Both the position numbers and the translations under genes were made by a program. Below, piece after piece: positions 1,978 through 21,815 of a stretch of DNA of 27,042 bases. The DNA comes from a virus (lineage: Duplodnaviria; Heunggongvirae; Uroviricota; Caudoviricetes): IMG/VR virus record IMGVR_UViG_2751185961_000011; one strand, 5' to 3'. The notes under the pieces were generated by a model, which searched no databases, was not told where the DNA came from, and was given only the letters and a program-made list of their open reading frames with translations. Position 1 is the stretch's first letter. Every line of letters begins with the position of its first letter.

Positions 1978-2958
1978 ATGAGCAAAGAACTGTTATCCGG
2001 CACGCCGCTTAAATGGGTGGGCGGAAAAAGTCGCATCATGAACACACTGAAGGCGCATCTGCCAGAAGCAGACTGCCTGGTTGAGCCGTTTGTGGGTGGC
2101 GCATCGGTATTCATGAACACCAGTTACAAGCGTTACATCCTGGGTGATTCCAATGGTGCGCTGATTAATTTCTACCGGCAAGCCAGGGACAACACCGACA
2201 GCCTGATCGACGAGGCGAAAACCCTGTTCCTGAACCACAACAACAGGGGTGACTATCTCATCATTCGCGAAACCTTTAACGCAGAGAATCATGCCTTCCT
2301 GAACAGCAGAACGGGAATAAGCGACCGCCGTGAACTGCGACTGGCCGCCATGTTTTTGTACCTGAACCGACACAGCTTTAACGGTTTGTTCCGCGTGAAC
2401 GGAAAAGGCGATTTTAACGTGCCTTTCGGCTGCTACCGCAAGCCCTACTTCCCTGAGCGTGAAATCCGCGCATTTGCAGACAAGGCAAACAGCACCCGAA
2501 CGCTGCTTATCCACGCAGATTTTAAGGATACGCTGAACTCTGCCAGTCACCTGTTCGGCATGGGCAACACGCTTTGCGTGTACTGCGATCCCCCTTACCT
2601 GCAATTCAGTGGCCGGGACAATTTTACCGCCTACGGAAAACCATTCGATGAAGACGAGCACGTTCGTCTGAGGGCAGCGCTTGACCGCCTTTCACAGGAA
2701 ACGGGCAGCATGACCAGCATCACCATCTCCAATTCCGACACACCGGAAACACGACGCATTTATCGGGGTTACCGGATGAACTGCATACAGGCACCACGAA
2801 GCGTTGGCGCAAGAACCCGGGAATCAGCACCGGAGGTTATCGCCACCCTGAGACAGTGCGACGCCTGCGGTCACCATGGCGGTGGCTACTGCCCGGACTG
2901 CGGACCTGTAACGGGAGATGCAACTTACAGCGTGATGTTTACCCCTGCCAGTACGTGA
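1978..2958 (+). CDS. dam: DNA adenine methyltransferase, Dam/D12-class N6-adenine MTase, with a C-terminal Cys-rich tail
   Basis: N-terminal WVGGKS and EPFVGGASVF (SAM-binding motif I-like). DPPY catalytic motif at 2587-2598. C-terminal CDACGHHGGGYCPDCG resembles a zinc ribbon. Good RBS (AAAGAGG). Confidence 0.85.
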   Translation: MSKELLSGTPLKWVGGKSRIMNTLKAHLPEADCLVEPFVGGASVFMNTSYKRYILGDSNGALINFYRQARDNTDSLIDEAKTLFLNHNNRGDYLIIRETFNAENHAFLNSRTGISDRRELRLAAMFLYLNRHSFNGLFRVNGKGDFNVPFGCYRKPYFPEREIRAFADKANSTRTLLIHADFKDTLNSASHLFGMGNTLCVYCDPPYLQFSGRDNFTAYGKPFDEDEHVRLRAALDRLSQETGSMTSITISNSDTPETRRIYRGYRMNCIQAPRSVGARTRESAPEVIATLRQCDACGHHGGGYCPDCGPVTGDATYSVMFTPAST

Positions 2959-3786: not shown

Positions 3787-4224
3787 CCGACCGGAGATCG
3801 AAACATGATTGCGCGAAGAGCTACCAACCGTCTCACAGGCTTTATTCCAGGCAAGGTTGATCATGCACTCCATCACGGGGCTGTCACTTTCCTCAACAAA
3901 GGAGAGGCGCGCAATCATGCATTCCGGGGTGAGCACGTGGCGCTGGCTAATCAGTCTTTGATAGCTAAGCGCCTGCCATTCAGCCTTTTCAGCTCTGATA
4001 GAAAGAGAGGAAGCCATGACCTGCCACACCAGAAAGAGCACCACACTGGCGAAAACAAACGTTGCGCTGTCGCAAAAAATGAATGCGGCAACAATCGCAA
4101 GGAAAGCGCTAATCCTCAGAACCAAGGAAGCGCGACGGTGGAGAAGGCTTGTCATGTGTTCAAGCCAGTAGCTGTACCACAGGTCAAAAAGAATTTCGTA
4201 ATCAGAAGGGAGCTTATCACTCAT
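3760..4224 (-). CDS. Putative small membrane protein encoded antisense to the early operon (start uncertain; alternative in-frame start at 4284)
   Basis: Minus-strand ORF with two clear hydrophobic segments (LVLRISAFLAIVAAFIFC and FVFASVVLFLVWQVMASSL). The competing + strand ORF 3805-4911 translates to low-complexity sequence. Confidence 0.4.
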   Translation of the reverse strand: MSDKLPSDYEILFDLWYSYWLEHMTSLLHRRASLVLRISAFLAIVAAFIFCDSATFVFASVVLFLVWQVMASSLSIRAEKAEWQALSYQRLISQRHVLTPECMIARLSFVEESDSPVMECMINLAWNKACETVGSSSRNHVSISGRLLSRLCGF

Positions 4225-4607
4225 CAGAAACACCCCGCGTATGCAGACAATCACCAGTTGCCAGGTGATATTAATTCGCAACATTCTAACCACATCAGCA
4301 CGCAACACAAAAACCGCTTGCCAGCGCTCGTCGTGTCGGGTTACATTTCCGCTGCACCTCATAAAACGGGTGCCGGGTTTCGCAGCCTGCTGACAACCAA
4401 AGCGCACAACCGCGCCAGCGGTTTTTTTGTGCGTACTGTATTGCCACGTCTTTTTCGCGTCAGAATTATGGCGGGGCGTACGGGGCCGACTTCGGTCGGG
4501 CCGGGTTCTTTGGTTGCCGGTACTGCGAACCTCGTACGCCTCGCCACCCACAGTTTCGCAGCTCTGGATGGTGAGTTTTCAAAACTTACAACCAAAGAGG
4601 CCACACC

Positions 4608-4829
4608 ATGGCAAACCGCAAGCAACAGCGCGCCCGCGCTGAGCGTCTTCACATCCGCAGCGAAATCAACCGCAGACTCCATCGGGCTGCATCTGTCGCC
4701 TTTATCATGCAGTCAAACGTATTACACCGACTTAACGACGGTATCGCTGCCGGGTATTACGCGGCAGTCTTCAGCTATCTCGCCGAAGATCTGGCAGAAC
4801 TACAAAGCCTCATCAACCAGCACCGATAA
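4608..4829 (+). CDS. Hypothetical basic protein (73 aa)
   Basis: Strong RBS (AAAGAGG) 7 nt upstream of the ATG. Arg-rich N-terminus. Confidence 0.45.
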   Translation: MANRKQQRARAERLHIRSEINRRLHRAASVAFIMQSNVLHRLNDGIAAGYYAAVFSYLAEDLAELQSLINQHR

Positions 4830-4897
4830 ACCACATCCTGAAGCCATCCCGCACCCGTGCGCGGGAGGCTTCCGCACGTCTGTTACCGGAGGTTCTC

Positions 4898-5089
4898 ATG
4901 AAGAGCGTTAAGGGACTTTCAGATATTCAGGACTTTTTTAACTGGATGTGGGCGGTGGATCCCCTGCTGGCTTCCCGCCTGAACAACTGGCACGACTACT
5001 ACCGCCGCGCTGTAAACAGGCCGCCCGCAGCATCACCACATACGGGGATTTCTCCTTCACCGTTGACGGTCGTTACCGCGTGGACGTGA
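4898..5089 (+). CDS. Hypothetical protein (63 aa); may be the 5' part of a frameshifted gene continuing in 4948-5313
   Basis: GGAGG RBS 5 nt upstream of the ATG. Overlaps the next ORF in a different frame. Confidence 0.35.
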   Translation: MKSVKGLSDIQDFFNWMWAVDPLLASRLNNWHDYYRRAVNRPPAASPHTGISPSPLTVVTAWT

Positions 5090-8093: not shown

Positions 8094-8190
8094 CACTTTA
8101 GTAATCAAAATGATGATGAGAAAAAACAATTACAAAGTTGGATATGCCTTTTCCATCATGAGGGATGAGATGTGAATCGCTAACCGAATA

Positions 8191-8220
8191 TTGTGTTGAA
8201 TAGAATGCAATTGATATAAT
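8191..8220 (+). promoter_or_regulatory. Candidate sigma70 promoter for the island operon
   Basis: TTGTGT (8191-8196), 18-nt spacer, TATAAT (8215-8220) in the AT-rich region upstream of the island methyltransferase. Found by eye only. Confidence 0.3.
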
Positions 8221-8353
8221 TCCCCTTAATTCATTGAAAACTGGATTTTTTGCATAACTATGCAAATATCTATGGACGGCGACGATGTTTTTTATCGGGA
8301 AAACTCAAGTGCCATGTTAAGATTATGTTTATTTTTTACTGAGAAAATCGTGG

Positions 8354-9199
8354 ATGACAAAGCCTTCTCATTTTAGAACCCCTCTTCGTTATCCGGGAGG
8401 TAAGGCAAAATTCTTGCCACATATTGAACAAATACTCCGCAACAATGATCTCATTGGTGGATGTTATGCTGAACCTTATGCAGGTGGAGCCGGTGTAGCA
8501 TTAGGTTTGCTCCTTAACGGTCTTGTTGAAAATATCTTCATAAATGATATTGATCCTGCCCTTTATTCTTTTTGGTTTGCAGTGGTTAATCATAACGATC
8601 TGTTATGTGAAATGATTGATGAAGTTCCTGTGACTATTGAAAATTGGCATACTCAAAAGGAGATACTCCTAAACAATGATAAATATAGTATGCTTGAAGT
8701 CGCATTATCTACTTTCTTTTTAAATAGAACAAACCGTTCAGGAATACTTAAGGCTGGCGTTATTGGAGGGAAAGAACAAAAAGGACCATGGAAGTTAGAT
8801 GCAAGATTCAACAAAAAAGAGTTAATTAAAAGGATTGAACTAATTGGTGCATATAAGGAGAAAATTTACGTATCGAATTTTGATGCTGCAGATTTTCTGC
8901 TACACCAAAAAGCATTACTACCCCAAAATAGTCTAATATATCTTGATCCACCTTATTATGTTAAAGGAGCAGAGTTATATAGAAATTTTTATAAACATGA
9001 TGATCATGTAAAAATCGCTAATACACTACGTGAAATTCAACTACCTTGGGTTGTGTCTTATGACAATGTGCCTGAAATAAAAAGCATATATCATGAATTC
9101 AACATGACTGATTATACGCTTAATTATACTGCACAAGATAAGAAAAAAGGTCTAGAAATTATCATTTATAATCATGGTATAAAAATCCCTGACATTTAA
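8354..9199 (+). CDS. Dam-family (D12-class) N6-adenine DNA methyltransferase, island copy
   Basis: N-terminal PLRYPGGKAKF and AEPYAGGAGVALG (SAM-binding motif I). DPPY catalytic motif at 8945-8956. 281 aa. AT-rich codon usage unlike the rest of the prophage. Confidence 0.85.
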   Translation: MTKPSHFRTPLRYPGGKAKFLPHIEQILRNNDLIGGCYAEPYAGGAGVALGLLLNGLVENIFINDIDPALYSFWFAVVNHNDLLCEMIDEVPVTIENWHTQKEILLNNDKYSMLEVALSTFFLNRTNRSGILKAGVIGGKEQKGPWKLDARFNKKELIKRIELIGAYKEKIYVSNFDAADFLLHQKALLPQNSLIYLDPPYYVKGAELYRNFYKHDDHVKIANTLREIQLPWVVSYDNVPEIKSIYHEFNMTDYTLNYTAQDKKKGLEIIIYNHGIKIPDI

Positions 9200-9216
9200 A
9201 TTTAAGGATGATATAG

Positions 9217-10914
9217 ATGATTAAAGAAATTAGTTTTAAAAAATTTAAGAAACTGATAGATATTGACTTCTCATTCAATGAAGACATCAATATAATATCA
9301 GGAACCAATGGGACATGTAAGACAACATTGCTTCATTTAATTAGCAATGGTTTCCAAATACCACCATCTAGATCACAAAATTATTCAAATAGTAATTGTG
9401 TTAGAGTTATAAAATCTATAAACAAAATAGCCAACCCAAAAATGGAAGCAATTGTTAGGGAATCAAAAAATTACACCGATCCGGCAGAGGGAACAAAAGG
9501 TGTGTTATTTTCTATTAACTATTTGGATCATAGCACACTAGACTTCAGAAAGCACAACTCAAAAAATCCAGACGAAGCGCAACGGTATGCTATCAAACCA
9601 GTATACCCACGCGGAAAAGAAAAACAATCACTTCCAGCTAAACCAGTTTTATATCTTGGATTATCGCGACTATTCCCGATTGGTGAAACTAAAGACGACG
9701 CCCTTACAAAAATTCCGTTAAACCTACCAGAAGAGTATGTTGGTTATATATCGAAAATATATAATGAACTTTTGGGCATTAATATTATAAATATAGAATC
9801 AAACAATATCGGAGATTTTAAAGCTGGCCCATTATTTGATACCGATAACCCAGCAATTGATTCTAATACCATATCATCCGGGGAAGACAATATATTCATT
9901 ATAATCAAGGCATTAGTTAGCCTTAGGTATTATTTTGAATCACTTATTCAATCCACTGATCAAAAAGAAAGCATTCTGTTAATAGATGAATTTGATGCCA
10001 CTTTACATCCTTCTTTACAGATAAGATTATTAGATAAAATTTATCAATACGCAAAAGATTATAAGATTCAAGTATTTTTCACAACGCACAGTCTGACATT
10101 GCTAGAATATGCTTTTCATAAAAAATACCATGTTGTCTATCTAATTAACAATATTACAAAGGCTCTGCTTTTGGATAATCCTGATATATTAAAAATAACA
10201 ATGTATCTGAAAACACAAACAAAGGATGAGATATACACAAGGAACAAGATACCAGTTTTCACGGAAGATGAAGAAGCTCGCTTTTTATTTAATGAAATAC
10301 TTGGTTATTGGATAAGCAAATATCCAAATTTTGCTATAGTTAGTAATTCATTTCACTTAATTGATTGTTTCATTGGTGCAGACAATTTAAAAACTATTTT
10401 TAATGATTCTCATCTTAAGGAAACCTCGTTAAAATCAATTTGTATTCTTGATGGAGATCACAGCCCTGAGGATCAGAGAGGAATTATATCACTGCCGGGT
10501 GAAAAAGCTCCAGAACAATTGATATTTGAGCATTGTGAGCACCTTTATAATACCGACGACTCTTCCTTCTGGGAAAATCAGGATATAATTAACAATGGTT
10601 TTTCGAAAGAGTTATACTTACTCAAGATACGTCCTCAATTACAATCAATTGAAACTGAAATTCAGAAAAGAAAAGACAACCATGAGTCTACATCCGGTTT
10701 AAGAAGAAAATTAAATAAGAAAATATTCAATCAGCATATTGAATTCTTTAGAATGATTACAAGAAACTGGTTAAACAAACCAGAAAATCAGAAATCTCTC
10801 CAGTATTTTTACAATGGATTACGATCCTTATTCTACCGGGTTACACCAACAAACGGCATTGACAGAAAAATTTGGGATTTTGACTATAACAAAATCATTA
10901 AAGAGGATAAATAA
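9217..10914 (+). CDS. OLD-family-like ABC-type ATPase with putative C-terminal TOPRIM nuclease domain
   Basis: Walker A GTNGTCKTT (9301-9327). Walker B LLIDEFD (D-E codons 9985-9990). H-loop-like VFFTTHS. C-terminal acidic motifs VFTEDEE (10255-10275) and ILDGDHS (DGD at 10450-10458) fit the TOPRIM glutamate plus DxD pattern. 565 aa, close to P2 Old in size and in the P2 old locus. AAGGA RBS 7 nt upstream and 17 nt after the methyltransferase stop. Confidence 0.75.
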   Translation: MIKEISFKKFKKLIDIDFSFNEDINIISGTNGTCKTTLLHLISNGFQIPPSRSQNYSNSNCVRVIKSINKIANPKMEAIVRESKNYTDPAEGTKGVLFSINYLDHSTLDFRKHNSKNPDEAQRYAIKPVYPRGKEKQSLPAKPVLYLGLSRLFPIGETKDDALTKIPLNLPEEYVGYISKIYNELLGINIINIESNNIGDFKAGPLFDTDNPAIDSNTISSGEDNIFIIIKALVSLRYYFESLIQSTDQKESILLIDEFDATLHPSLQIRLLDKIYQYAKDYKIQVFFTTHSLTLLEYAFHKKYHVVYLINNITKALLLDNPDILKITMYLKTQTKDEIYTRNKIPVFTEDEEARFLFNEILGYWISKYPNFAIVSNSFHLIDCFIGADNLKTIFNDSHLKETSLKSICILDGDHSPEDQRGIISLPGEKAPEQLIFEHCEHLYNTDDSSFWENQDIINNGFSKELYLLKIRPQLQSIETEIQKRKDNHESTSGLRRKLNKKIFNQHIEFFRMITRNWLNKPENQKSLQYFYNGLRSLFYRVTPTNGIDRKIWDFDYNKIIKEDK

Positions 10915-10990
10915 TGTATTCTAATAGAATATAAACATCAAAGCTATATTTTTTACACATATCAAGAGTAAAAAATAATTTAACTTTTAC

Positions 10991-11030
10991 ATAACGACCT
11001 CTTTTACAAATAAGTAGAAAAGGTCGTTAT
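10991..11030. repeat. Imperfect 17-nt inverted repeat (hairpin) downstream of the island operon
   Basis: ATAACGACCTCTTTTAC (10991-11007), loop AAATAA, GTAGAAAAGGTCGTTAT (11014-11030); 15 of 17 positions complementary. Possible terminator or operator. Confidence 0.4.
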
Positions 11031-12570: not shown

Positions 12571-14304
12571 TCAGAACTCCATTGCAAAGCCACGATTATC
12601 CTCACGCTCTGCGCCGATTGGCTCATTGATAACAGCAAGCATGGTTGCCCAGGCGAGATCACCATGACTGACACTGCGTGAGCGGTCAGTGTCATAGGTG
12701 ATATAGCCGCCGGGCGTCTGTATTTTTCGCACCGATGCAAAGGCCTGTACCAGGTCGCGCTCGCTGCGGTCATACTCCCAGCGTCCGGCACGGACCACCT
12801 GAAGCATCTTCATGACCAGCGCCCGCTTTGAAGCGATATTAAAGTTATACGGAACAGCCAGGGGGAAGAATTTTTTCACTATCTGATAAACCCCTTCCCC
12901 GTTCCCGCCGGTCACATCAATCCCGATATGCTTCACATTGTATTTTTGGGTGTACTCCTCAATCAGGGCCGCCTGCTGTTCAAACTCCATGCCCTGAACC
13001 CTGACGGTTTCCACCGTACGAAAACGCCCACCGGCAACAAGGGGTGGCACGCACACCGACAGCGCCCCGCAGTCCCCCTTCCCGCTGCTGCCGTTGGCGT
13101 CATACCCGAGCCAGACTTCCCTCACCCCCATAGGGCGGACAGCAAAAGGCTTCCAGTCCGGCCATTCGTCATAGCCATCAACACCGCACCCGACGAGCGT
13201 ATTCAGACTGAAGGCTGCCTCACCATCACGGACAAATTCGCACATGTACAGATTGCGAAATTCACTTTCTGTATTTTCGCCGCGAATATCATCAATACTG
13301 GTGAACTGCCATCCGTTAGCGACAGCATCCTCAATGGTGACAATCTGCCGCCACGTTTTATCGGGAAAGAGCACGCCCCCCTTCAGGTGGGCATGTGAAA
13401 CATCAAATTCATTGCGTTTTGAGCGCGGCCGCTCGCTGTTCCAGCGGTCCCCTGTCCAGAACTGATACGCCTCATGCGTCTCACCTGACGGCGTAGAGAA
13501 GTAAGTGCGCGTAAGCCCTTTCAGCGTCGCCATTGCCCCGGCAACCTTCCTGAGGTTCACAAAGTTACTGACCCAGAAAAATTCGTCGAATTTCAGATGA
13601 CCGGTATAGGACTGCGCGGTGGCAGCTGACGTACCGAGGAAGTGCAGCTCCGCGCCGTTGGACAGCACGATCTTGTCGCCCCCTTTCAACTCAACATCCA
13701 CTTCCAGCGCCGCCTGCTGAATAAAATGCTTGAACTGATACGCCTGACGACGGGAGGCGGATAAAAATATCTGGTTGCGCTGATACCCGGCGGAGACATC
13801 ATCACGCAGTGCATCAAGGAGCGCCTCGCGCGCAAAATACCAGGTCGCACCAATCTGACGCGACTTCAGGATCATGCGGTTGCGGTGGTGGCGGTTTTCG
13901 TACCATTCACGTTGATGCCACGCCAGCGTCGGGAGGATTTTTTCACGAAGCGCGACAATCTGTTCTTCGGTGAAGTGATTTTTCAGTCTGCGTTTACGGG
14001 GCTTTTTACCGGAAACGGCCTGTTCTCCCTGACCGTCATTCAGTTTTTTCAGCTGGCGCGTGAGAAGGTCAATTTCCTTAAAATCGCTGCCGCTTTTCTC
14101 TGTTTTTGTGGTGAGCTGGATCAGGCGCGCATCAATGGACTGGGTGACCCGCTGGATCGGAGGTGTGGCATCCCACTCATCGCGTTTTTTCCATGAGTAA
14201 ATCGTGTTCTGGCTGATCCCCATCAGTTGCGAGATTTCCGCAGGTGTGTACCCTTGCCAGTAAAGTTGTCTTGCCCTTATGCGGACAAGTGCATCCTGAA
14301 TCAT
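12571..14304 (-). CDS. P: Terminase large (ATPase) subunit (P2 gpP-like)
   Basis: 577 aa. N-terminal HTH-like YTPAEISQLMGISQNTIYSWKK. Transcribed divergently from O, as in P2. Confidence 0.88.
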   Translation of the reverse strand: MIQDALVRIRARQLYWQGYTPAEISQLMGISQNTIYSWKKRDEWDATPPIQRVTQSIDARLIQLTTKTEKSGSDFKEIDLLTRQLKKLNDGQGEQAVSGKKPRKRRLKNHFTEEQIVALREKILPTLAWHQREWYENRHHRNRMILKSRQIGATWYFAREALLDALRDDVSAGYQRNQIFLSASRRQAYQFKHFIQQAALEVDVELKGGDKIVLSNGAELHFLGTSAATAQSYTGHLKFDEFFWVSNFVNLRKVAGAMATLKGLTRTYFSTPSGETHEAYQFWTGDRWNSERPRSKRNEFDVSHAHLKGGVLFPDKTWRQIVTIEDAVANGWQFTSIDDIRGENTESEFRNLYMCEFVRDGEAAFSLNTLVGCGVDGYDEWPDWKPFAVRPMGVREVWLGYDANGSSGKGDCGALSVCVPPLVAGGRFRTVETVRVQGMEFEQQAALIEEYTQKYNVKHIGIDVTGGNGEGVYQIVKKFFPLAVPYNFNIASKRALVMKMLQVVRAGRWEYDRSERDLVQAFASVRKIQTPGGYITYDTDRSRSVSHGDLAWATMLAVINEPIGAEREDNRGFAMEF

Positions 14305-14370: not shown

Positions 14371-14388
14371 TGTAGCGGTGTTCTTACA
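14371..14388 (+). promoter_or_regulatory. Candidate Ogr/Delta-type late activator site (TGT-N12-ACA) in the divergent P/O intergenic region
   Basis: TGTAGCGGTGTTCTTACA: TGT 14371-14373, 12-nt spacer, ACA 14386-14388, about 73 bp upstream of the O start codon. Confidence 0.35.
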
Positions 14389-15312: not shown

Positions 15313-16407
15313 ATGGGAAACCGCTTAACGCTTTCTCGCGAAGGCCGCAGCAATCTTGAGGCCTATCTTGCACGCCAGGCAGAACTGGCCGAAACCACCG
15401 TAGAACGACTGGGGAAAACCTTCAGCGTTGATCCGGCTGTTCATCAGAAGATGGAAAACGCCATCAAAGAGAGCGACGAGCTGCTGAAAAGAATCAACAG
15501 CATCGGCGTTGACGATCAGGAGGGTGAAAAAGTCCTGGTGAATACCAGCGGCCCCATCGCCAGCACCAACTCAACCAGTGACGGCGTGAAGCGACGCAAT
15601 CCCGCTGACGTCTCTGATCTGGCATCGCGTCGTTATCGCTGCGAACAGGTGAACTACGACACTTTCATCAGCTACGCACAGATTGACGCGTGGAGCAACC
15701 AGAAAAACTTCCAGCAACTGCTGAGTGCACAAATCACCCGACAGATTGCACTGGACCGTATCATGATTGGCTTTAACGGTGAGTCGCACGCCATCATCTC
15801 CGATCGTTCTGCCAACCCGAAACTTCAGGACGTTAACACCGGGTGGCTGAAACACATCCGTGAACACGCCACGACGCGTGTCGTGAAGGCAATGACGCTG
15901 ACCCGTCGCGATCATGAAAACAAACTGGTTGCAAAAGGTGACTACGGCAACGCTGACGCGATGGTTAACGACATTCGTTCTTCCGTACTGGATGAGTGGC
16001 ACAAGGACGCCCCGGATCTGGTTGTTGTCATGGGCCGCAACCTGTTCAACACGCTGCGTCTGCCTATGATTAACGCCATCAGCACCACCAACCCGAACAC
16101 GGAGCTGGTCGCCGGACAGCTGATTACAGCCTCCCGCACCATTGGCGCGCTGCCGACCTTCTTTGCGCCGTACTTCCCGGACGATGCCATGCTGATCACG
16201 TCGTTCAGCAACCTTTCGGTGTACTTCCAGAAAGGGTCACTGCGTCGCTTCATCCGTGAAGAGCCGGAGTACAACCGTATCGCCACCTACCAGTCCATGA
16301 ACGACTGCTACGTGGTGGAAGACTACGGCAAGTGCGCACTGATTGAGGGCATTTCTTTCGCCGGTGAAGATCCGGAAGACAAGAAAGAGGCAGAAGCACA
16401 GGCGTAA
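15313..16407 (+). CDS. N: Major capsid protein (P2 gpN-like)
   Basis: 364 aa (P2 N is about 357 aa) directly after the scaffold gene. Confidence 0.88.
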   Translation: MGNRLTLSREGRSNLEAYLARQAELAETTVERLGKTFSVDPAVHQKMENAIKESDELLKRINSIGVDDQEGEKVLVNTSGPIASTNSTSDGVKRRNPADVSDLASRRYRCEQVNYDTFISYAQIDAWSNQKNFQQLLSAQITRQIALDRIMIGFNGESHAIISDRSANPKLQDVNTGWLKHIREHATTRVVKAMTLTRRDHENKLVAKGDYGNADAMVNDIRSSVLDEWHKDAPDLVVVMGRNLFNTLRLPMINAISTTNPNTELVAGQLITASRTIGALPTFFAPYFPDDAMLITSFSNLSVYFQKGSLRRFIREEPEYNRIATYQSMNDCYVVEDYGKCALIEGISFAGEDPEDKKEAEAQA

Positions 16408-16456: not shown

Positions 16457-17266
16457 ATGCTGACACCGGCACAACGATACCTTCAGCGCGCGATGGCGCA
16501 TCATCGGGCTGATCCATTCAATCGCGAAGAGCAGCGAACACGAACGGCACATGAACAGGTTCTTCACCAGTTACGCCTCGCACAGTTGCAGCTGAATGGC
16601 GTGCAGTCAAACATCGCGAAAGCGGAGCTGAAGAAGCACCTGATACCGAATTTTGAAGGCTGGATCGACGGCACACTGGCAGGCGACAGCGGACGCCAGG
16701 ACGAAGTCATTACCACCATGATGGTGTGGGCCATTGACTGCCGGGATTATCCGCTGGCGCTGCGTATCGGTGAGTACGTTATTCGTCACCGGCTGGCACT
16801 GCCGGACAACTTCGGGCGCGATGCGGCGACCGTACTCACCGAAGAAATTGCCGAAGTTGTGCTGACAGAAGCCGCCACCAACAGCGAAACCGACTTATCC
16901 GGCTATATCCGTATGCTGGACGAGCTGGATGCACTGGTTCACGACCAGGACATGCCGGATCAGGTTCGTGCAAAACTACATAAGGCGCGGGCATTTTCAC
17001 GGCGCGCATCAGGCAGTACGGAAGACATGACTGTGTCACTTGGTCTGCTGCGTGAAGCCATGCGCATTAATCCGGCAGCGGGCGTGAAGCGTGAAATCGC
17101 CACGCTGGCCAGAAAGGTATCAAAGGTTCAGCCGGAACCGGAAAAACCGGCAGAAGAGAAAAGTAAATCGAAAGCAACATCAGGGCGCAAAAAGCCGACT
17201 ACAAAAGCGACGGCCAGAAAAGCCACGAAAAAAACCGCCGCAAAACCGGCGCGCAAGGCGACCTGA
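16457..17266 (+). CDS. M: Terminase small (endonuclease) subunit (P2 gpM-like)
   Basis: 269 aa at the gpM position, with a Lys/Ala/Thr-rich basic C-terminal tail (KKPTTKATARKATKKTAAKPARKAT). Confidence 0.8.
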   Translation: MLTPAQRYLQRAMAHHRADPFNREEQRTRTAHEQVLHQLRLAQLQLNGVQSNIAKAELKKHLIPNFEGWIDGTLAGDSGRQDEVITTMMVWAIDCRDYPLALRIGEYVIRHRLALPDNFGRDAATVLTEEIAEVVLTEAATNSETDLSGYIRMLDELDALVHDQDMPDQVRAKLHKARAFSRRASGSTEDMTVSLGLLREAMRINPAAGVKREIATLARKVSKVQPEPEKPAEEKSKSKATSGRKKPTTKATARKATKKTAAKPARKAT

Positions 17267-17374
17267 TAACACCGGACCCGACCTCGTCGGCAGGCGGCGC
17301 GACCGGTGATCTGATCGCTGACTCCCGGTTATTTTCACCGGTCGCCCACCGCCTGATCTACAGGAGAAGACATC

Positions 17375-17869
17375 ATGAGCATGGTAGCCAGACCCCGTGT
17401 GAACGACGCCACGGATGACGCGACAGACACCGACGACGGAGAAGCGCGCATCAGTACAGACGCGTTCTGGCCGGATATCGTGCTGAAAGAGCTGCGCCTT
17501 GCCATGCGCATTCCCGGGCGCACCACCACCTCACGTCTGCTGCATTCGGCCACCGAAGCTGTGGCACATGTAACGGCAGAGCTTGACGCCTGGAAACAGA
17601 AACAGGAGGCGGCGGGACGGTCGACACTGGCGGACGTTCCGGCAGCACACATCAACGGTGAGAGCGTGAACGTGCACCGGTATCGACGCGCGGTGTATGC
17701 ACTGACCCGCGCGGGCGTTCTTGAGCGTTCGCGGGATGTGGACACCACCGACAAAGGTGATCGCCGGGCCGATGCGCTGGACATGCAGATTGAAGATATG
17801 TGGCGCGATGCACGCTGGGCAATATCCGATATTCGCGGCGTCAGACGGATTTATGCGGAGCTGATTTAA
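17375..17869 (+). CDS. L: Head completion/stabilisation protein (P2 gpL-like)
   Basis: 164 aa at the gpL position (P2 L is about 169 aa). Confidence 0.78.
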   Translation: MSMVARPRVNDATDDATDTDDGEARISTDAFWPDIVLKELRLAMRIPGRTTTSRLLHSATEAVAHVTAELDAWKQKQEAAGRSTLADVPAAHINGESVNVHRYRRAVYALTRAGVLERSRDVDTTDKGDRRADALDMQIEDMWRDARWAISDIRGVRRIYAELI

Positions 17870-18069
17870 TGAAGGTAACCGCGCATGACGGCGACACCGT
17901 TGACTTACTCTGCCAGCGTCATTACGGCATGACAAAGGGCGTGACAGAGCGCGTTCTGGCTGCCAATCCGGGGCTGAGTAACACGGTATTCCTCACTGCC
18001 GGGCAGGAAGTTGAATTACCGGAAATCACACAGGAAAAACAGCGCGAAACCGTTCAGTTGTGGGATTGA
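17869..18069 (+). CDS. X: Tail protein X (LysM-like small protein)
   Basis: 66 aa. ATG overlaps the L stop (TAATG). Size and position match P2 gpX (67 aa). Confidence 0.7.
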   Translation: MKVTAHDGDTVDLLCQRHYGMTKGVTERVLAANPGLSNTVFLTAGQEVELPEITQEKQRETVQLWD

Positions 18070-18071
18070 TT

Positions 18072-18362
18072 ATGTTTCAGAGAATTTACGACCACATTAC
18101 GTTTTTCACATCCGTCATGGTCACCGGTATAGGGGTTATGACGCTGAGCGAGAAGATGGCGCTGGCAGGACTGATTCTGGGGGCGCTTTCACTGCTGCGC
18201 GGATGGATGCACAGAACACGTATGGAGCAGGCACAGGAGCGGCGCAATGAGCTTATTGCACGCATTGCCGACCAGATGCAGCACCGACCACTAAAAGGCA
18301 GCGAGAAGCGCGCTCTGGAAGCCCTGAATGCAGACGGGGAATCACATGCCAGGACAGATTAA
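18072..18362 (+). CDS. Y: Holin (P2 gpY-like)
   Basis: About 96 aa with hydrophobic segments (FFTSVMVTGIGVM, LAGLILGALSLL) and a charged C-terminus, directly upstream of the endolysin. Confidence 0.65.
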   Translation: MFQRIYDHITFFTSVMVTGIGVMTLSEKMALAGLILGALSLLRGWMHRTRMEQAQERRNELIARIADQMQHRPLKGSEKRALEALNADGESHARTD

Positions 18363-18885
18363 ACGCTATGCCGTTGCCGCCATCGTGGCGCTGGGTTTTT
18401 CGCTGGCCCCCGGGGAGCTGAGAACCTCACAGGAGGCACAGGAAAAAATTGCCACCTGGGAAGAGTGTCGGGCATTCCCGTACAGGGATATCGCTGGCGT
18501 GAAAACAGTGGGTTGTGGCTCAACGGGAAACGTCCCCGACCGCCACCATACCAAACAGGAAGTTGCCGGTCGATGGGTGAACGATTTACGACGGGCGGAG
18601 AACTGCATCAATCAGAATTTCAATGGCCGCGACATGCCACAGCGCCACTTTGAGGCAATGACGGATGCTGCCTTTAATCTGGGGTGCAAAGGCCTGATGT
18701 GGTTTAAGGGGCGTGACGGGCGGATGCACAGAACAACCATCTGGAAGTACGCACAGAAGCGGAACTGGCACGCGATGTGTGGCAGGCTGACGGATTTTGT
18801 GAACAGCGACGGACGCTATTCACAGGGGCTGTTTAACCGACGCAATGACTTCAGAAACTGGTGTATGAACGGAGTGAAACAATGA
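18346..18885 (+). CDS. K: Endolysin, T4-lysozyme-like (GH24) with N-terminal SAR-like hydrophobic segment
   Basis: E-x8-D-x5-T catalytic spacing in WEECRAFPYRDIAGVKTVGCG. N-terminal YAVAAIVALGFSLAPG hydrophobic stretch. Start chosen at MPGQ (18346) rather than the ORF-track start at 18328. Confidence 0.8.
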   Translation: MPGQIKRYAVAAIVALGFSLAPGELRTSQEAQEKIATWEECRAFPYRDIAGVKTVGCGSTGNVPDRHHTKQEVAGRWVNDLRRAENCINQNFNGRDMPQRHFEAMTDAAFNLGCKGLMWFKGRDGRMHRTTIWKYAQKRNWHAMCGRLTDFVNSDGRYSQGLFNRRNDFRNWCMNGVKQ

Positions 18886-19316
18886 AAACGCCTGCCATGT
18901 TGCTCTGGTTTCTTGCCACCCTGGTGCTTTGTGGTCTGACAGGCTGGGAGGCATACCGCAAAGGGAAGGAAAGTCTCGGACGGGAACAGATGATGGACGT
19001 CATCGAGGACAACCGCGCCGCCATGCAGGAAGTTCGCCATGCATACACAGACTTTTCCAGGGTGATAAACGTGATCCGCATTCTGGACCAGCAACGGATC
19101 ACAGAAGGAGAGCAACGACGTGAAGAAATGCAAAAAGCCGTGCAGGGCGACACGTGTGCCAGCGCTTATCCTCCCGCTGCTGTTACTGAGCGGTTGCAGC
19201 AACACGCCGCACACGTTGAAAACCAGACTCGTTTACGAGCCGGTACCGGAAGCTCTGACGAGACAGACTCCCGTCCCCTTTCTGGAGCCCCCGGTGACCT
19301 GGTACCGAATCACTGA
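18882..19316 (+). CDS. lysB: Rz-like inner-membrane spanin (LysB-like)
   Basis: N-terminal TM segment MKTPAMLLWFLATLVLCGL, then a charged helical region. ATGA overlap with the endolysin stop. Contains the Rz1-like gene in another frame. Confidence 0.65.
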   Translation: MKTPAMLLWFLATLVLCGLTGWEAYRKGKESLGREQMMDVIEDNRAAMQEVRHAYTDFSRVINVIRILDQQRITEGEQRREEMQKAVQGDTCASAYPPAAVTERLQQHAAHVENQTRLRAGTGSSDETDSRPLSGAPGDLVPNH

Positions 19317-19431
19317 ATGGAGTGATCGGTTGCTGAATGCGCTGGATACGTGCAACACAGACAAAGCCGCAATCGCCTGGCTGGACAAACAAAGAGCAGA
19401 ACGGGCGCAAGATGCGCCCCATCAGGAGTAA
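19120..19431 (+). CDS. lysC: Rz1-like outer-membrane lipoprotein spanin (LysC-like)
   Basis: Signal peptide plus lipobox LLLSGC. Proline-rich mature part. Starts in the +1 frame inside lysB and extends beyond it. Confidence 0.7.
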   Translation: MKKCKKPCRATRVPALILPLLLLSGCSNTPHTLKTRLVYEPVPEALTRQTPVPFLEPPVTWYRITEWSDRLLNALDTCNTDKAAIAWLDKQRAERAQDAPHQE

Positions 19432-19434
19432 ACG

Positions 19435-21414
19435 ATGAGCAAAAAACACTTTGAACTGATTACTGCCACCAACCGCGCAGAATTCGCTGAAAAAGTTAAC
19501 AAGCGATTACAGGAAGGCTGGGAACTTCTCGGTAATGCCGGTATTGCATCAGAGCCGGGAGTCCCCTGGTATCTCATGCAGGCTATGGTTTCAGGCAGTG
19601 ATGACCAGGGAGGCACCATTATCACCCCGACATCCGACAGAGAACCGGAGTGGTATTACGTTGTGGTGAGCGCTGGTCAGTCCAACTCTATGGCATACGG
19701 TGAGGGGTTACCTCTCCCGGACAGTTACGATAAACCCGATTCGCGCATTCGCCAGCTGGCACGCCGCAGCACCGTAACCCCGGGCGGAAAAGCCTGTGCC
19801 TATAACGACATCATTCTGGCGGATCACTGCCTGCATGACGTGCAGAATATGAGCCAGTACAACCACCCGAAAGCCGACCTGAACAAAGGTCAGTATGGCT
19901 GTGTGAGTCAGGGATTGCACATTGCGAAGCGCCTGCTGCCATTTATCCCGGCAAATGCGGGGATCCTTCTGGTCCCATGCAGCCGTGGCGGTTCCGGCTT
20001 TACAACCGGTGATGCGGGGCAATTCAGCGAAATCGGCGGCGCAACTGAAAAATCCTGCCGCTGGGGAACGAACACGCCGCTGTACAAGGATTTAATCAGC
20101 CGCACAAAAGCAGCGCTGGCGAAAAATCCGAAAAACGTCCTGCTGGCCGTCTGCTGGACACAGGGCGAGGCAGATCTTGAGAAAGAACAAAACGCCGCAC
20201 AGCATAAAGATCTTTTCACAGCCATGGTGAAGCAGTTCCGGGCTGACCTGGTCGATGTTGCGAAGCAGTGCAACCAGGGCAACCAGGGCAACCCTGAAAG
20301 CGTGCCGTGGATTTGTGGAGATACCACCTACCACTGGAAAAAAACCTACGAAGCACAGTACGCAACCGTGTATGGCGGATACAAAAACAGCACTGAGAAA
20401 AATATTGTTTTTGTGCCTTTTGTTACGGATGAGTACGGGAAAAACACCCCAACAAACGAGCCGACAGAAGATCCGGATATTGCGGAAGCGGGTTATTACG
20501 GTGCCGCATCCCGCAGTAGCGGAAACTGGGTAAGCCATCTGCGTGGAACGCACTTCAGCTCATGGGCCCGCCGGGGCATTATTGCCGATCGCATGGCGTC
20601 AGCAATCCTGCTTAACGTCGGCCGCACGCTGCCATTTATTGCGGGTACAGAGCCGGAACGCGTGGCAAAACCATCACAGGATGCACCGGGCGGCATCAGT
20701 AAGCCATCTTCACCGGAAGCAGAACAACCGGCAGTCAGACCGGGGCCGGTCACGCTCATGAGTCTGCTGGCATCATCTCCTGAACTGGAAAGCCAGGGCT
20801 GGACGCTGAGCGAAGGCAAAAACGGGGCCAACACACCAAAACAACTGAAAGACACGCTGATCGGTGATGAGGAAGCAACAGGGAAAAAAGCCCTGAAACT
20901 GACCAAACAGGAAGGCAATACCTGGTATCTGGAGCATAAGGCCGGTAATGGTGCTGACCTTCTGAAAAATGGCGGGACTGTAAGTTGCCGATTCAAAATC
21001 GAGGGTGAGCTGAAAAAAGACCAGTACGCAATGGCGATGTACTGGAAAACATCAGCATTACCGCAGGATGTGAAATTACTGGGGGCAGATCCAAATAATT
21101 TATTGCTCTCATTCTTTCTTCAGACAGACAGCGCAAACCTGAATCTGATGTATCACAAAACGCCAAACGAACAACTGGGAACCTTTGGTCAGTTCAATAA
21201 CAACTGGCACACCATAGCGTTTCGTTTTGCGGGAAACAACAGCACCCAGGTAACACCGGTTCTGGATGGCGTGGACGGAAAACCGTTCATGCTTTCCACA
21301 TCAAAAGCCGATGTTACCAACGACACGTTACGCGTGACCGATATCACGTATCGGCCGACCTATACCGTACTGATTGACAGCCTGAGCGTTGTCGTAAATC
21401 AGCCACCGGCATAA
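19435..21414 (+). CDS. NanS-p-like protein: N-terminal DUF1737-like domain, SGNH-type sialate O-acetylesterase domain, C-terminal putative carbohydrate-binding domain
   Basis: 659 aa. SGNH block I motif in YYVVVSAGQSNSMAYGEG. N-terminal MSKKHFELITATNRAEFAEKVNKRLQEGWELLG resembles the DUF1737 leader of prophage NanS-p esterases. AGGAG RBS. Confidence 0.65.
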   Translation: MSKKHFELITATNRAEFAEKVNKRLQEGWELLGNAGIASEPGVPWYLMQAMVSGSDDQGGTIITPTSDREPEWYYVVVSAGQSNSMAYGEGLPLPDSYDKPDSRIRQLARRSTVTPGGKACAYNDIILADHCLHDVQNMSQYNHPKADLNKGQYGCVSQGLHIAKRLLPFIPANAGILLVPCSRGGSGFTTGDAGQFSEIGGATEKSCRWGTNTPLYKDLISRTKAALAKNPKNVLLAVCWTQGEADLEKEQNAAQHKDLFTAMVKQFRADLVDVAKQCNQGNQGNPESVPWICGDTTYHWKKTYEAQYATVYGGYKNSTEKNIVFVPFVTDEYGKNTPTNEPTEDPDIAEAGYYGAASRSSGNWVSHLRGTHFSSWARRGIIADRMASAILLNVGRTLPFIAGTEPERVAKPSQDAPGGISKPSSPEAEQPAVRPGPVTLMSLLASSPELESQGWTLSEGKNGANTPKQLKDTLIGDEEATGKKALKLTKQEGNTWYLEHKAGNGADLLKNGGTVSCRFKIEGELKKDQYAMAMYWKTSALPQDVKLLGADPNNLLLSFFLQTDSANLNLMYHKTPNEQLGTFGQFNNNWHTIAFRFAGNNSTQVTPVLDGVDGKPFMLSTSKADVTNDTLRVTDITYRPTYTVLIDSLSVVVNQPPA

Positions 21415-21419
21415 CAATG

Positions 21420-21443
21420 CTTCCCCGCCATCCGGCGGGGAAG
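21420..21443 (+). other. Hairpin immediately after the esterase stop
   Basis: CTTCCCCGCC (21420-21429), loop ATCC, GGCGGGGAAG (21434-21443). No T-run follows. Confidence 0.4.
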
Positions 21444-21479
21444 CTCGCTGACAACCGGGAAAATAAAAGGAGCAAGCCA

Positions 21480-21644: not shown

Positions 21645-21685
21645 AACAGGCACAGCGCATCAGAACGGCACCACTGTCCACAGCA

Positions 21686-21718
21686 AAAGAAACAAAAAAC
21701 CCTCCGGTATACGGAGGG
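21686..21718 (-). terminator. Intrinsic-terminator-like hairpin with U-tract when read on the minus strand
   Basis: Stem CCCTCCG (21700-21706) / CGGAGGG (21712-21718), loop GTATA, flanked on the + strand by an A-rich run (21686-21699) that becomes a U-tract on the minus-strand transcript. Confidence 0.4.
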
Positions 21719-21815
21719 TGCAAGAGGGGAAAGGTGAGCAAGAAAGAACCCGAATTAAAAGCCATTTAATTTTGAGATTTTTAATTGCCACACGCAACAC
21801 GTTCTACGGTGTTTT

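Follow-up and report, generated by a model that had tools for sequence, protein, structure and literature searches.

A NanS-p-family sialate O-acetylesterase gene in the late genes of P88-like Escherichia coli prophages

What does a gene of the sialate O-acetylesterase family NanS-p do among the late genes of a P2-like prophage, and is it a stray insertion there or a regular part of the phage? The question is raised by IMG/VR virus record IMGVR_UViG_2751185961_000011 (Caudoviricetes), a stretch of 27,042 nucleotides (nt) that we analysed at its full length and call the window. A gene for a protein of 659 amino acids (aa) lies in it between the lysis gene lysC and the tail completion gene R. 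A first interpretation made from the letters alone (the sequence-only reading) had taken this gene for a NanS-p-like esterase carried as a moron, and had suggested transfer between phage families and a possible host-fitness function. Our analysis suggests that the gene encodes a functional NanS-p-family 9-O-acetyl-sialate esterase, which is carried together with a small DUF1378 gene as accessory cargo in the late operon of a P88-like prophage. We would give this reading a probability of roughly 80%.

The esterase and its place in the prophage

The gene encodes a genuine and complete three-domain esterase of the NanS-p family, as judged from its sequence. The open reading frame (ORF) starts with ATG, runs without interruption over exactly the span given in Table 1 and specifies a protein of 72 kDa. 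Pfam recognizes DUF1737 at the N-terminus (34.7 bits with the whole protein and 39.8 bits with the domain alone, cut-off 24), SASA at aa 148-272 (49 bits, cut-off 24.8) and DUF6645 at aa 510-623 (151 bits, above the curated cut-off). PHROG 143 is matched end to end (E=1e-293), the central part matches the E. coli NanS structure 3PT5 (E=2.4e-113) and the C-terminal part matches 6YP6, the NanS-p C-terminal domain from phage phi24B (E=1.3e-63). These homology searches bear out the proposal of a NanS-p-like esterase. A database cluster at 98% identity, with 277 members, already bears the NCBI name 'sialate O-acetylesterase [E. coli]', and the nearest non-identical proteins in a collection of 5.8 billion are 59-63% identical.

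The catalytic residues of the family are kept. The GQSN motif occupies aa 81-84 (Gln82-Ser83, with the Ser codon at 19681-19683), RGGS aa 184-187, QGE aa 243-245 and RGTH aa 370-373, the last one with His373 (codon 20551-20553). Residues G81, Q82, S83, N84, Q243, G244, E245, R370 and H373 are invariant across 28 homologues, and in the alignment to 3PT5 the residues Gln18, Ser19 and His301 of NanS correspond to Q82, S83 and H373. According to PMC9063846, Ser19 and His301 act in NanS, Gln18 and a Gly form part of the oxyanion hole, and the catalytic Asp of the classical SGNH enzymes is lacking. The window protein likewise has no Asp two residues before its His. The sequence-only reading had looked for a Ser/His/Asp triad, which was mis-specified for an enzyme of this kind; the Ser and the His of the NanS dyad are both present. 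The same variant motif blocks are found in the NanS-p of Stx (Shiga toxin) phages (PMC10462455). On these alignments the esterase is very probably catalytically active.

The C-terminal domain keeps three (Y531, Y536 and F561) of the four aromatic residues proposed for sugar binding in PMC10462455, and has V627 at the fourth position. In the linker before this domain, P424 of the PSSP motif is invariant in our alignment A1. We predict no transmembrane segment or signal peptide, since the maximal Kyte-Doolittle mean over 19 residues is 1.26.

The window covers most of a P2-like prophage. Its plus strand encodes, in order, the scaffold, the major capsid protein (P2 family, 15313..16407), the small terminase, L, X, a holin-like protein, lysozyme, LysB and LysC, then the 659-aa ORF, a 54-aa ORF, R, S, V, W, J, I and the tail fibre. 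The backbone is distant from P2, with aa identities of 39% for R and 43% for V, and closer to P88/Xuanwuvirus, with 58% for R, 70% for L and about 62% for the major capsid protein. The prophage that hosts the esterase is thus a P88-like E. coli prophage (Peduoviridae, 'P2-like'). In P2 (NC_001895) lysC overlaps R and orf30 is placed after S, so the uninterrupted lysC-R-S order stated earlier for P2 is correct. In P88, the nearest isolated relative, the gap between lysB and R is 137 bp and holds no annotated gene. Because lysC or lysB directly precedes R in both phages, the segment 19432-21815 (2,384 bp) is extra in the window, and the esterase cassette is missing from these otherwise syntenic relatives.

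The gene is closely fitted into its surroundings. Only 3 nt separate the lysC stop from the esterase ATG, and an AGGAG ribosome-binding site lies 8 nt upstream of the start. The GC content is 0.52-0.56 across 19.5-21.0 kb and 0.54-0.60 in the flanks, i.e. the composition of the cassette is like that of its neighbours. The place between Q/stx and holin S, where lambdoid phages carry the gene in their late region, is not the place seen here; that position belongs to the known NanS-p examples and does not define the protein family. A chance origin is excluded for the ORF, its domain matches, its neighbours and the hairpins described below.

The small ORF downstream of the esterase gene, noticed before without a name, is a DUF1378 gene. 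Its product has one N-terminal hydrophobic helix, and the gene has an AGGAG site of its own. Homologues lie downstream of the esterase in 933W (where the gene is unannotated), in BP-4795 and in Mu-like and other P2-like loci, and the DUF1378 gene is the usual downstream partner of nanS-p. The unannotated ORF of 933W (NC_000924, 25261-25422; positions 6073-6234 of our locus L004) is 50% identical to that of the window and overlaps, in another frame, an annotated gene for a hypothetical protein of 148 aa.

Table 1. Positions of the esterase gene, its domains and the related features in the window
Feature	Position	Strand	Basis
Terminase gene, divergent from the scaffold gene	12571..14304	-	
Perfect TGT-N12-ACA box, candidate Ogr-type late promoter element	14371..14388	+	Sole intergenic match, between the terminase and scaffold genes
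Scaffold gene	start 14425	+	
lysC (Rz1-like o-spanin)	19216..19431	+	Pfam LysC on ORF 19120..19431; coordinates from the RefSeq annotation of the G1/2 prophage
NanS-p-family sialate O-acetylesterase gene, 659 aa	19435..21414	+	ORF; Pfam, PHROG and PDB matches
DUF1737 (PF08410), subtype 'F', loop ASEPGxPxYLMQ	19441..19590	+	aa 3-52, Pfam
NanS-type SGNH (type II) catalytic domain	19642..20610	+	aa 70-392, alignment to 3PT5
Linker 2, Pro/Ser-rich, motif P424-S-S-P427	20620..20742	+	aa 396-436, low AlphaFold2 confidence
Lectin-like jelly-roll domain DUF6645 (PF20350)	20743..21399	+	aa 437-655, 6YP6
Hairpin 1, 11-bp GC-rich stem, 5 nt past the esterase stop	21419..21444	.	-24.9 kcal/mol, z=-6.6
DUF1378 gene, 54 aa	21479..21643	+	Pfam 74.8 bits; PHROG 494
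Hairpin 2, 8-bp stem, A-run before the stem	21699..21719	.	-16.4 kcal/mol, z=-4.5
R, tail completion; right boundary of the inserted segment	21816..22286	+	Pfam P2_Phage_GpR

Same-slot alleles and exchange between phage families

As far as the loci compared here show, the esterase is a conserved feature of a clade of P88-like prophages and not a sporadic insertion. This clade was found in at least 27 of the 5,426 complete E. coli genomes. The same region is present at about 98% identity in 14 genomes, a divergent esterase fills the same slot in two, and 11 have a third backbone lineage, whose representative encodes the esterase and DUF1378 between lysC and R. With the alleles L005, L006 and L105, which come from public assemblies and IMG/VR, the slot between lysC and R is occupied by at least six alleles (also L001, L002 and L003), and the gpR identity to the window among same-slot loci goes from 100% down to 65%. 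The idea of a sporadic insertion was not upheld by this comparison. All the P2-borne alleles are intact, with a ratio of nonsynonymous to synonymous substitution rates (dN/dS) of 0.1-0.3 in each domain at saturated synonymous sites. DUF1378 is found in four of the six allele types; it is decayed in L002 (two in-frame stops) and missing in L005, which indicates that parts of the cassette can be lost.

The allele in the near-identical prophage of E. coli G1/2 (NZ_CP060083) differs from the window esterase by five residues and one 9-bp tandem duplication. At 20263-20283 (aa 277-283) the unit AACCAGGGC is tandemly duplicated in the window, adding N280-Q281-G282 relative to the G1/2 allele. The insertion lies at the surface of the catalytic domain, in a stretch where homologues vary.

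A homologue is encoded in 347 phage records, all from Stx-converting or other lambdoid-type coliphages by organism name, at about 55% aa identity (range roughly 42-59%), in agreement with the earlier statement that the family is known from such phages. None of these phage records is a P2-like phage by organism name and none has an esterase more than 80% identical, and a megablast search of the locus against 50,697 phage records gave no match. A scan of contigs from one genome per species returned seven loci, whose full-length matches are all in Escherichia (E. albertii and Escherichia sp.). In the literature that we covered, which does not include subscription journals, we found no report linking the NanS-p family to P2-like phages.

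The sequence comparisons indicate that the catalytic and sugar-binding domains cross the borders between phage families while the N-terminal domain stays. The N-terminal domains of the P2-borne alleles are 47-87% identical among themselves and 22-47% identical to the lambdoid ones. The other two domains behave differently. In the protein of allele L006 (P0004), the catalytic domain shares 89-90% identity with its counterparts in 933W and BP-4795, and the C-terminal domain is 92-95% identical to another lambdoid allele type. An allele associated with Mu-like genes is 83-91% identical to lambdoid alleles in its catalytic and C-terminal domains.

The mosaicism of L006 can be followed at the nucleotide level in 100-nt windows. 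Its identity to 933W is at random level in the upstream flank and the first ~240 nt, is 72-99% (mostly 89-99%) over nt 340-1040, and is random again past the stop. Over nt 1046-1900 it is 87-99% identical to the lambdoid allele L063. The recombination breakpoints in this profile are clean. The profile shows that exchange between phage families is ongoing and takes place by recombination within the gene. Transfer between phage families had been suggested before from the position of the gene; the mosaic within L006, with identities of up to 99%, supports it more strongly than was proposed. Most probably, an ancestor of this prophage clade took up the cassette. Lambdoid prophages resident in the same cells would then have donated, repeatedly and by homologous recombination, replacements for its catalytic and C-terminal segments, while the 5' part for the N-terminal domain would have descended together with the P2-like backbone.

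An unselected IMG/VR sample gives the same picture of the N-termini. The F-type N-terminus of the window esterase occurs in it with P2 markers only, types A, C and D occur with lambdoid markers only, and a 110-aa N-terminus occurs only beside Mu-like tail and gin genes. The homologue with this unrelated 110-aa N-terminus follows the tail-fibre and gin genes in prophages with Mu-like tails and is itself followed by DUF1378.

Several loci of this Mu-associated group have further features. In L007 (10001-12417), L054, L060 and L089-L098 the NanS-p homologue after the gin invertase gene is followed by DUF1378 and DUF826. The first ~110 residues of the Mu-associated homologues gave no match in Pfam and bear no relation to DUF1737. 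In L062 and L069 the esterase gene is followed by a 933W-type DUF1378, holin S (97-99% identical to 933W) and lysozyme R (92-95%). These two loci are hybrids: at the esterase gene or immediately past it, a Mu-like tail module gives way to a lambdoid lysis cassette.

Expression, proposed function and rival explanations

The esterase gene is probably transcribed within one long late operon. The late block from O to the tail fibre gene appears continuous, as S and V overlap. A consensus scan, which an atypical promoter could escape, found no sigma-70-like promoter on the plus strand between 17000 and 21000. P2 late promoters carry a TGT-N12-ACA dyad. The window has six perfect boxes of this kind versus 6.3 expected, so the number of matches is at chance level and only the position of the box at 14371, between the divergent terminase and scaffold genes, is suggestive. 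No perfect Ogr-type box was found before the esterase gene or before R, and boxes with one mismatch are again at chance level (137 found versus 124 expected).

Both hairpins seen earlier near the cassette are real by their folding scores (Table 1), and neither of them has a U-tract on the sense strand. Hairpin 2 is terminator-like on the minus strand only, because its A-run precedes the stem. We examined nine alleles (the window, L002-L007, L011 and L012) whose contexts are P2-like, lambdoid or Mu-like, and each of them has a stable hairpin within ~30 nt of the esterase stop. In most of them an A-run precedes the stem, so that the hairpin reads as an intrinsic terminator of the opposite strand, on which no gene lies; equivalent elements are annotated as minus-strand terminators in the curated record of phage 434. 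The hairpin could be a block to antisense transcription or a stabilizer of the mRNA 3' end. An Rfam search gave no match within the esterase cassette.

The most likely function, by analogy with the lambdoid enzymes, is the de-O-acetylation of mucin sialic acids after lysis. The gene would be transcribed in lytic growth only, by read-through from an Ogr-type late promoter upstream of the capsid genes. The protein would build up in the cytoplasm and exit when the products of the neighbouring holin, endolysin and spanin genes lyse the cell. Outside the cell, the lectin-like C-terminal domain would bind glycans and the SGNH domain would remove the 7-, 8- and 9-O-acetyl groups of mucin sialic acids. 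Sialidases could then reach the deacetylated sialic acids, and sibling lysogens that survive could use them, as has been described for the NanS-p of enterohaemorrhagic E. coli (EHEC). The characterized family members, all of them lambdoid alleles, act on free and mucin-bound N-acetyl-9-O-acetylneuraminic acid (Neu5,9Ac2; PMC8319020). Expression of lambdoid nanS-p rises on induction, according to PMC10462455.

Several points weigh against this reading. The role in favour of the lysogen is carried over by analogy from the lambdoid phages of EHEC, and a preprint on phi24B suggests that the primary role of the family may be on the virion (bioRxiv 10.64898/2026.04.10.717836). The overall identity of the window protein to any other allele is 55-63%, and that of its catalytic domain is at best 77%. 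Its specificity may differ from that of the known enzymes, as the sugar-site aromatic F611 is replaced by V627. The full-length AlphaFold2 model has a mean predicted local distance difference test (pLDDT) score of 66.6 and falls below 50 at the active-site loops (aa 82-100 and 330-380) as well as over the linker (aa 397-437); with such poor active-site loops it is unusable for the Ser-His geometry and for fold searches. Transcription in one operon is concluded from the absence of consensus signals, and a one-mismatch Ogr-like box, of the kind found at chance level, lies before R at 21675-21692.

With the capsid findings on phi24B gp84, a role anchored on the virion has to be taken seriously as a rival to the reading of a benefit for the lysogen. 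In this account the esterase is primarily a virion component: DUF1737 would oligomerize, dock on the P2-type capsid or another virion surface and display the esterase and lectin domains there. The particle itself would bind and edit O-acetylated sialoglycans of the mucus, linker cleavage may shed the enzyme, and the benefit to the lysogen would be secondary. We regard this as possible, though somewhat unlikely. In phi24B, gp84 is among the most intense virion bands, a 70-kDa form of it is seen in fresh virions, and it is cleaved in its linkers after release; its DUF1737 hexamer was resolved by cryo-electron microscopy in the capsid hexon pore, held via Tyr42 (bioRxiv 10.64898/2026.04.10.717836). 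The DUF1737 domain of the window protein is bona fide. Its AlphaFold2 domain model (pLDDT 86.6; strands at 5-11, 36-40 and 43-53 and a helix at 14-26) has the same predicted beta-alpha-beta-beta topology as the phi24B domain. The dN/dS of the domain among P2-borne alleles is about 0.1-0.2, its most conserved stretch is the beta2-beta3 hairpin ASEPGxPxYLMQ, which aligns around the phi24B Tyr42, and the PSSP motif is kept in the linker where gp84 is cleaved. Tyr42 itself, however, is not kept in the window protein: V43 stands at its position, in a loop with one extra residue (SEPGVPWY). The SISSP motif of the first linker is absent. P2-type capsids are T=7 and are not known to have a flat face-centre hexon of the T=9 kind, which counts against docking in the same manner. 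The phi24B hexamer binds only the flat face-centre hexons of the T=9 shell (bioRxiv 10.64898/2026.04.10.717836).

The family-specific distribution of the N-terminal domains can be read in two ways. Type F is found only in P2-like prophages, i.e. in nine of nine IMG/VR loci and in L001, L002, L003, L005 and L006; lambdoid phages have types A-E and the neighbours of Mu-like tail genes have the 110-aa type, while the other two domains cross the borders. This counts in favour of the virion account. A neutral account is available, however: the N-terminal domain lies at the edge of the sole homology between the phage families, so double crossovers within the gene cannot move it. The lambdoid type A is also found upstream of at least three unrelated terminase/portal families, and a match between N-terminal subtype and head type within the lambdoid phages, which we considered, is unsupported for this reason. 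A Foldseek search of the domain model against the PDB gave non-significant dodecin-like matches (best E=0.037) and no phage decoration protein. Searching proteins with the 60-aa N-terminal domain gave two fragments only, and a pattern scan of IMG/VR found no single-domain F-type DUF1737 gene, all nine loci having it fused to the esterase.

A still more doubtful extension of the virion account is that NanS-p is no enzyme of lysogenic conversion but a portable, virion-displayed editor of mucus glycans in lambdoid, P2-like and Mu-like-tail coliphages, each with its own N-terminal adaptor. If the F-type DUF1737 did dock the esterase on the P2-type particle, P2-like phages would gain their first decoration protein, and nature would supply a case in which enzymatic cargo is exchanged on a conserved anchor of the virion.

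The gene is improbable as a classical moron, i.e. a gene transcribed autonomously from the repressed prophage that gives the lysogen a steady supply of esterase. The part of the moron proposal that stands is the absence of the cassette from the syntenic P2 and P88. Strong hairpins flank the cassette downstream, and its product is a metabolic enzyme and not an essential phage function, both of which would fit a moron. The hairpins, however, have no sense-strand U-tracts, no promoter-like site was found on the plus strand over 17000-21000, the gene starts 3 nt after lysC, and in GC content it does not differ from the late genes on either side. As neither a separate promoter nor an anomalous composition was found, the esterase gene is better described as late-operon cargo. 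The rise of lambdoid nanS-p on induction described above also argues against constant expression from the lysogen, and a protein with no export signal would, without the lysis proteins, stay in the cytoplasm and away from mucin.

A slightly less probable alternative, in our view, is that the substrate is a bacterial surface polymer, such as the O-acetylated K1-type polysialic acid capsule or the O-antigen, and that the enzyme helps the progeny phage to escape from debris or to reach receptors. Lysis genes lie near the esterase gene in both lambdoid and P2-like phages, its product has a carbohydrate-binding module, and the polysialic acid of E. coli K1 is O-acetylated at O7/O9 (table in PMC8319020). 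However, the characterized members act on free or mucin-bound Neu5,9Ac2, the cassette beside Mu-like tail genes does not adjoin lysis genes, and neither the window nor the host records that we examined gave any sign of a sialic-acid capsule. That the gene is an inactive relic is very improbable: DUF1378 has decayed in L002 and is missing in L005, but the 659-codon ORF is intact with all its catalytic motifs kept, and the P2-borne alleles examined share this intactness and the low dN/dS given above.

Other parts of the window also carry accessory genes. A low-GC island (about 0.30 versus 0.55 elsewhere) lies at 8100-11000, between the replication gene A and the portal gene, and has no counterpart in the E. 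coli G1/2 prophage, which is nearly identical elsewhere. Its ORF 8354..9199 (+) encodes a D12 adenine methyltransferase with a PADLOC match to PD-Lambda-5_B (E=1e-121), and its ORF 9217..10914 (+) encodes a 565-aa AAA_15/AAA_21 ATPase with weak matches to many defence ATPases. By these matches the island looks like anti-phage defence cargo. The window thus has two separate genes for D12-class N6-adenine DNA methyltransferases, the other one being in the early region (1978..2958). Rfam finds an isrK Hfq-binding RNA at 4354-4428 (+, 65.9 bits) and directly after it a C4 antisense RNA at 4464-4551 (+, 85.7 bits), which lie inside or overlap ORF 3805..4911 (Ash-family domain). The pair suggests a module for RNA-based immunity or antirepressor control in this prophage.

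Comparison with known systems

NanS-p has so far been discussed almost only as cargo of Stx/lambdoid phages that helps EHEC to feed on mucus. The cassette of esterase gene, DUF1378 gene and hairpin is found here as a stable and selected element in the P2-like prophages of commensal and clinical E. coli, and occurs in three kinds of prophage setting: in lambdoid prophages, in P2-like ones and next to Mu-like tail genes. The ecological range of sialate esterases carried by phages is thereby extended past Shiga toxin-producing E. coli, and the locus offers a small and genetically tractable phage background for the lysogen-versus-virion question raised by the 2026 phi24B structure. What is new is the phage background, the N-terminal subtype and the regulatory context. 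The enzyme itself is ordinary and carries its name at NCBI already.

The closest known systems are the NanS-p of Stx/lambdoid phages (933W L0105, phi24B vb_24B_21/gp84, EDL933 and O104:H4). They have in common with the window protein the architecture of DUF1737, SGNH and DUF6645 domains, the GQSN and QGE motifs, the downstream DUF1378, the hairpin after the stop, the late position by the lysis genes and the lack of a signal peptide. Block IV is RGTH in the window protein, versus RSSH or RASH in NanS and most NanS-p. The overall aa identity to the window protein is just 51-58%; it is 22-47% in the N-terminal domain, where the window subtype has neither Tyr42 nor SISSP. The window gene lies downstream of the lysis cassette in the probably Ogr-regulated operon of a P2-like myovirus, whereas the lambdoid gene lies between Q/stx and holin S and is Q-antiterminated.

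The chromosomal NanS (YjhS, 3PT5) aligns over the whole catalytic domain, with Gln18, Ser19 and His301 kept and the Asp absent in both proteins. NanS is encoded in the nan/yjh sialic-acid regulon of the host and has an export signal. Its solved chain of 337 residues covers the catalytic region only, and the prophage alleles add N- and C-terminal domains around this NanS-like core (PMC10462455). With phi24B gp84 the window protein shares a homologous DUF1737 (a helix and a three-stranded sheet are predicted in the window), a flexible linker, the esterase domain and the PSSP motif in the second linker. The two differ in capsid type and in Tyr42 and the first cleavage motif, which the window protein has not kept.

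The orf30 of P2, between S and V, is likewise a non-essential insert among the late genes that is absent from close relatives. The esterase cassette sits at another junction, that between lysC and R, and reads in the direction of the late genes, with which it is apparently co-transcribed. Its GC content is normal, whereas that of the probable defence island at 8.1-11.0 kb of the same window is low.

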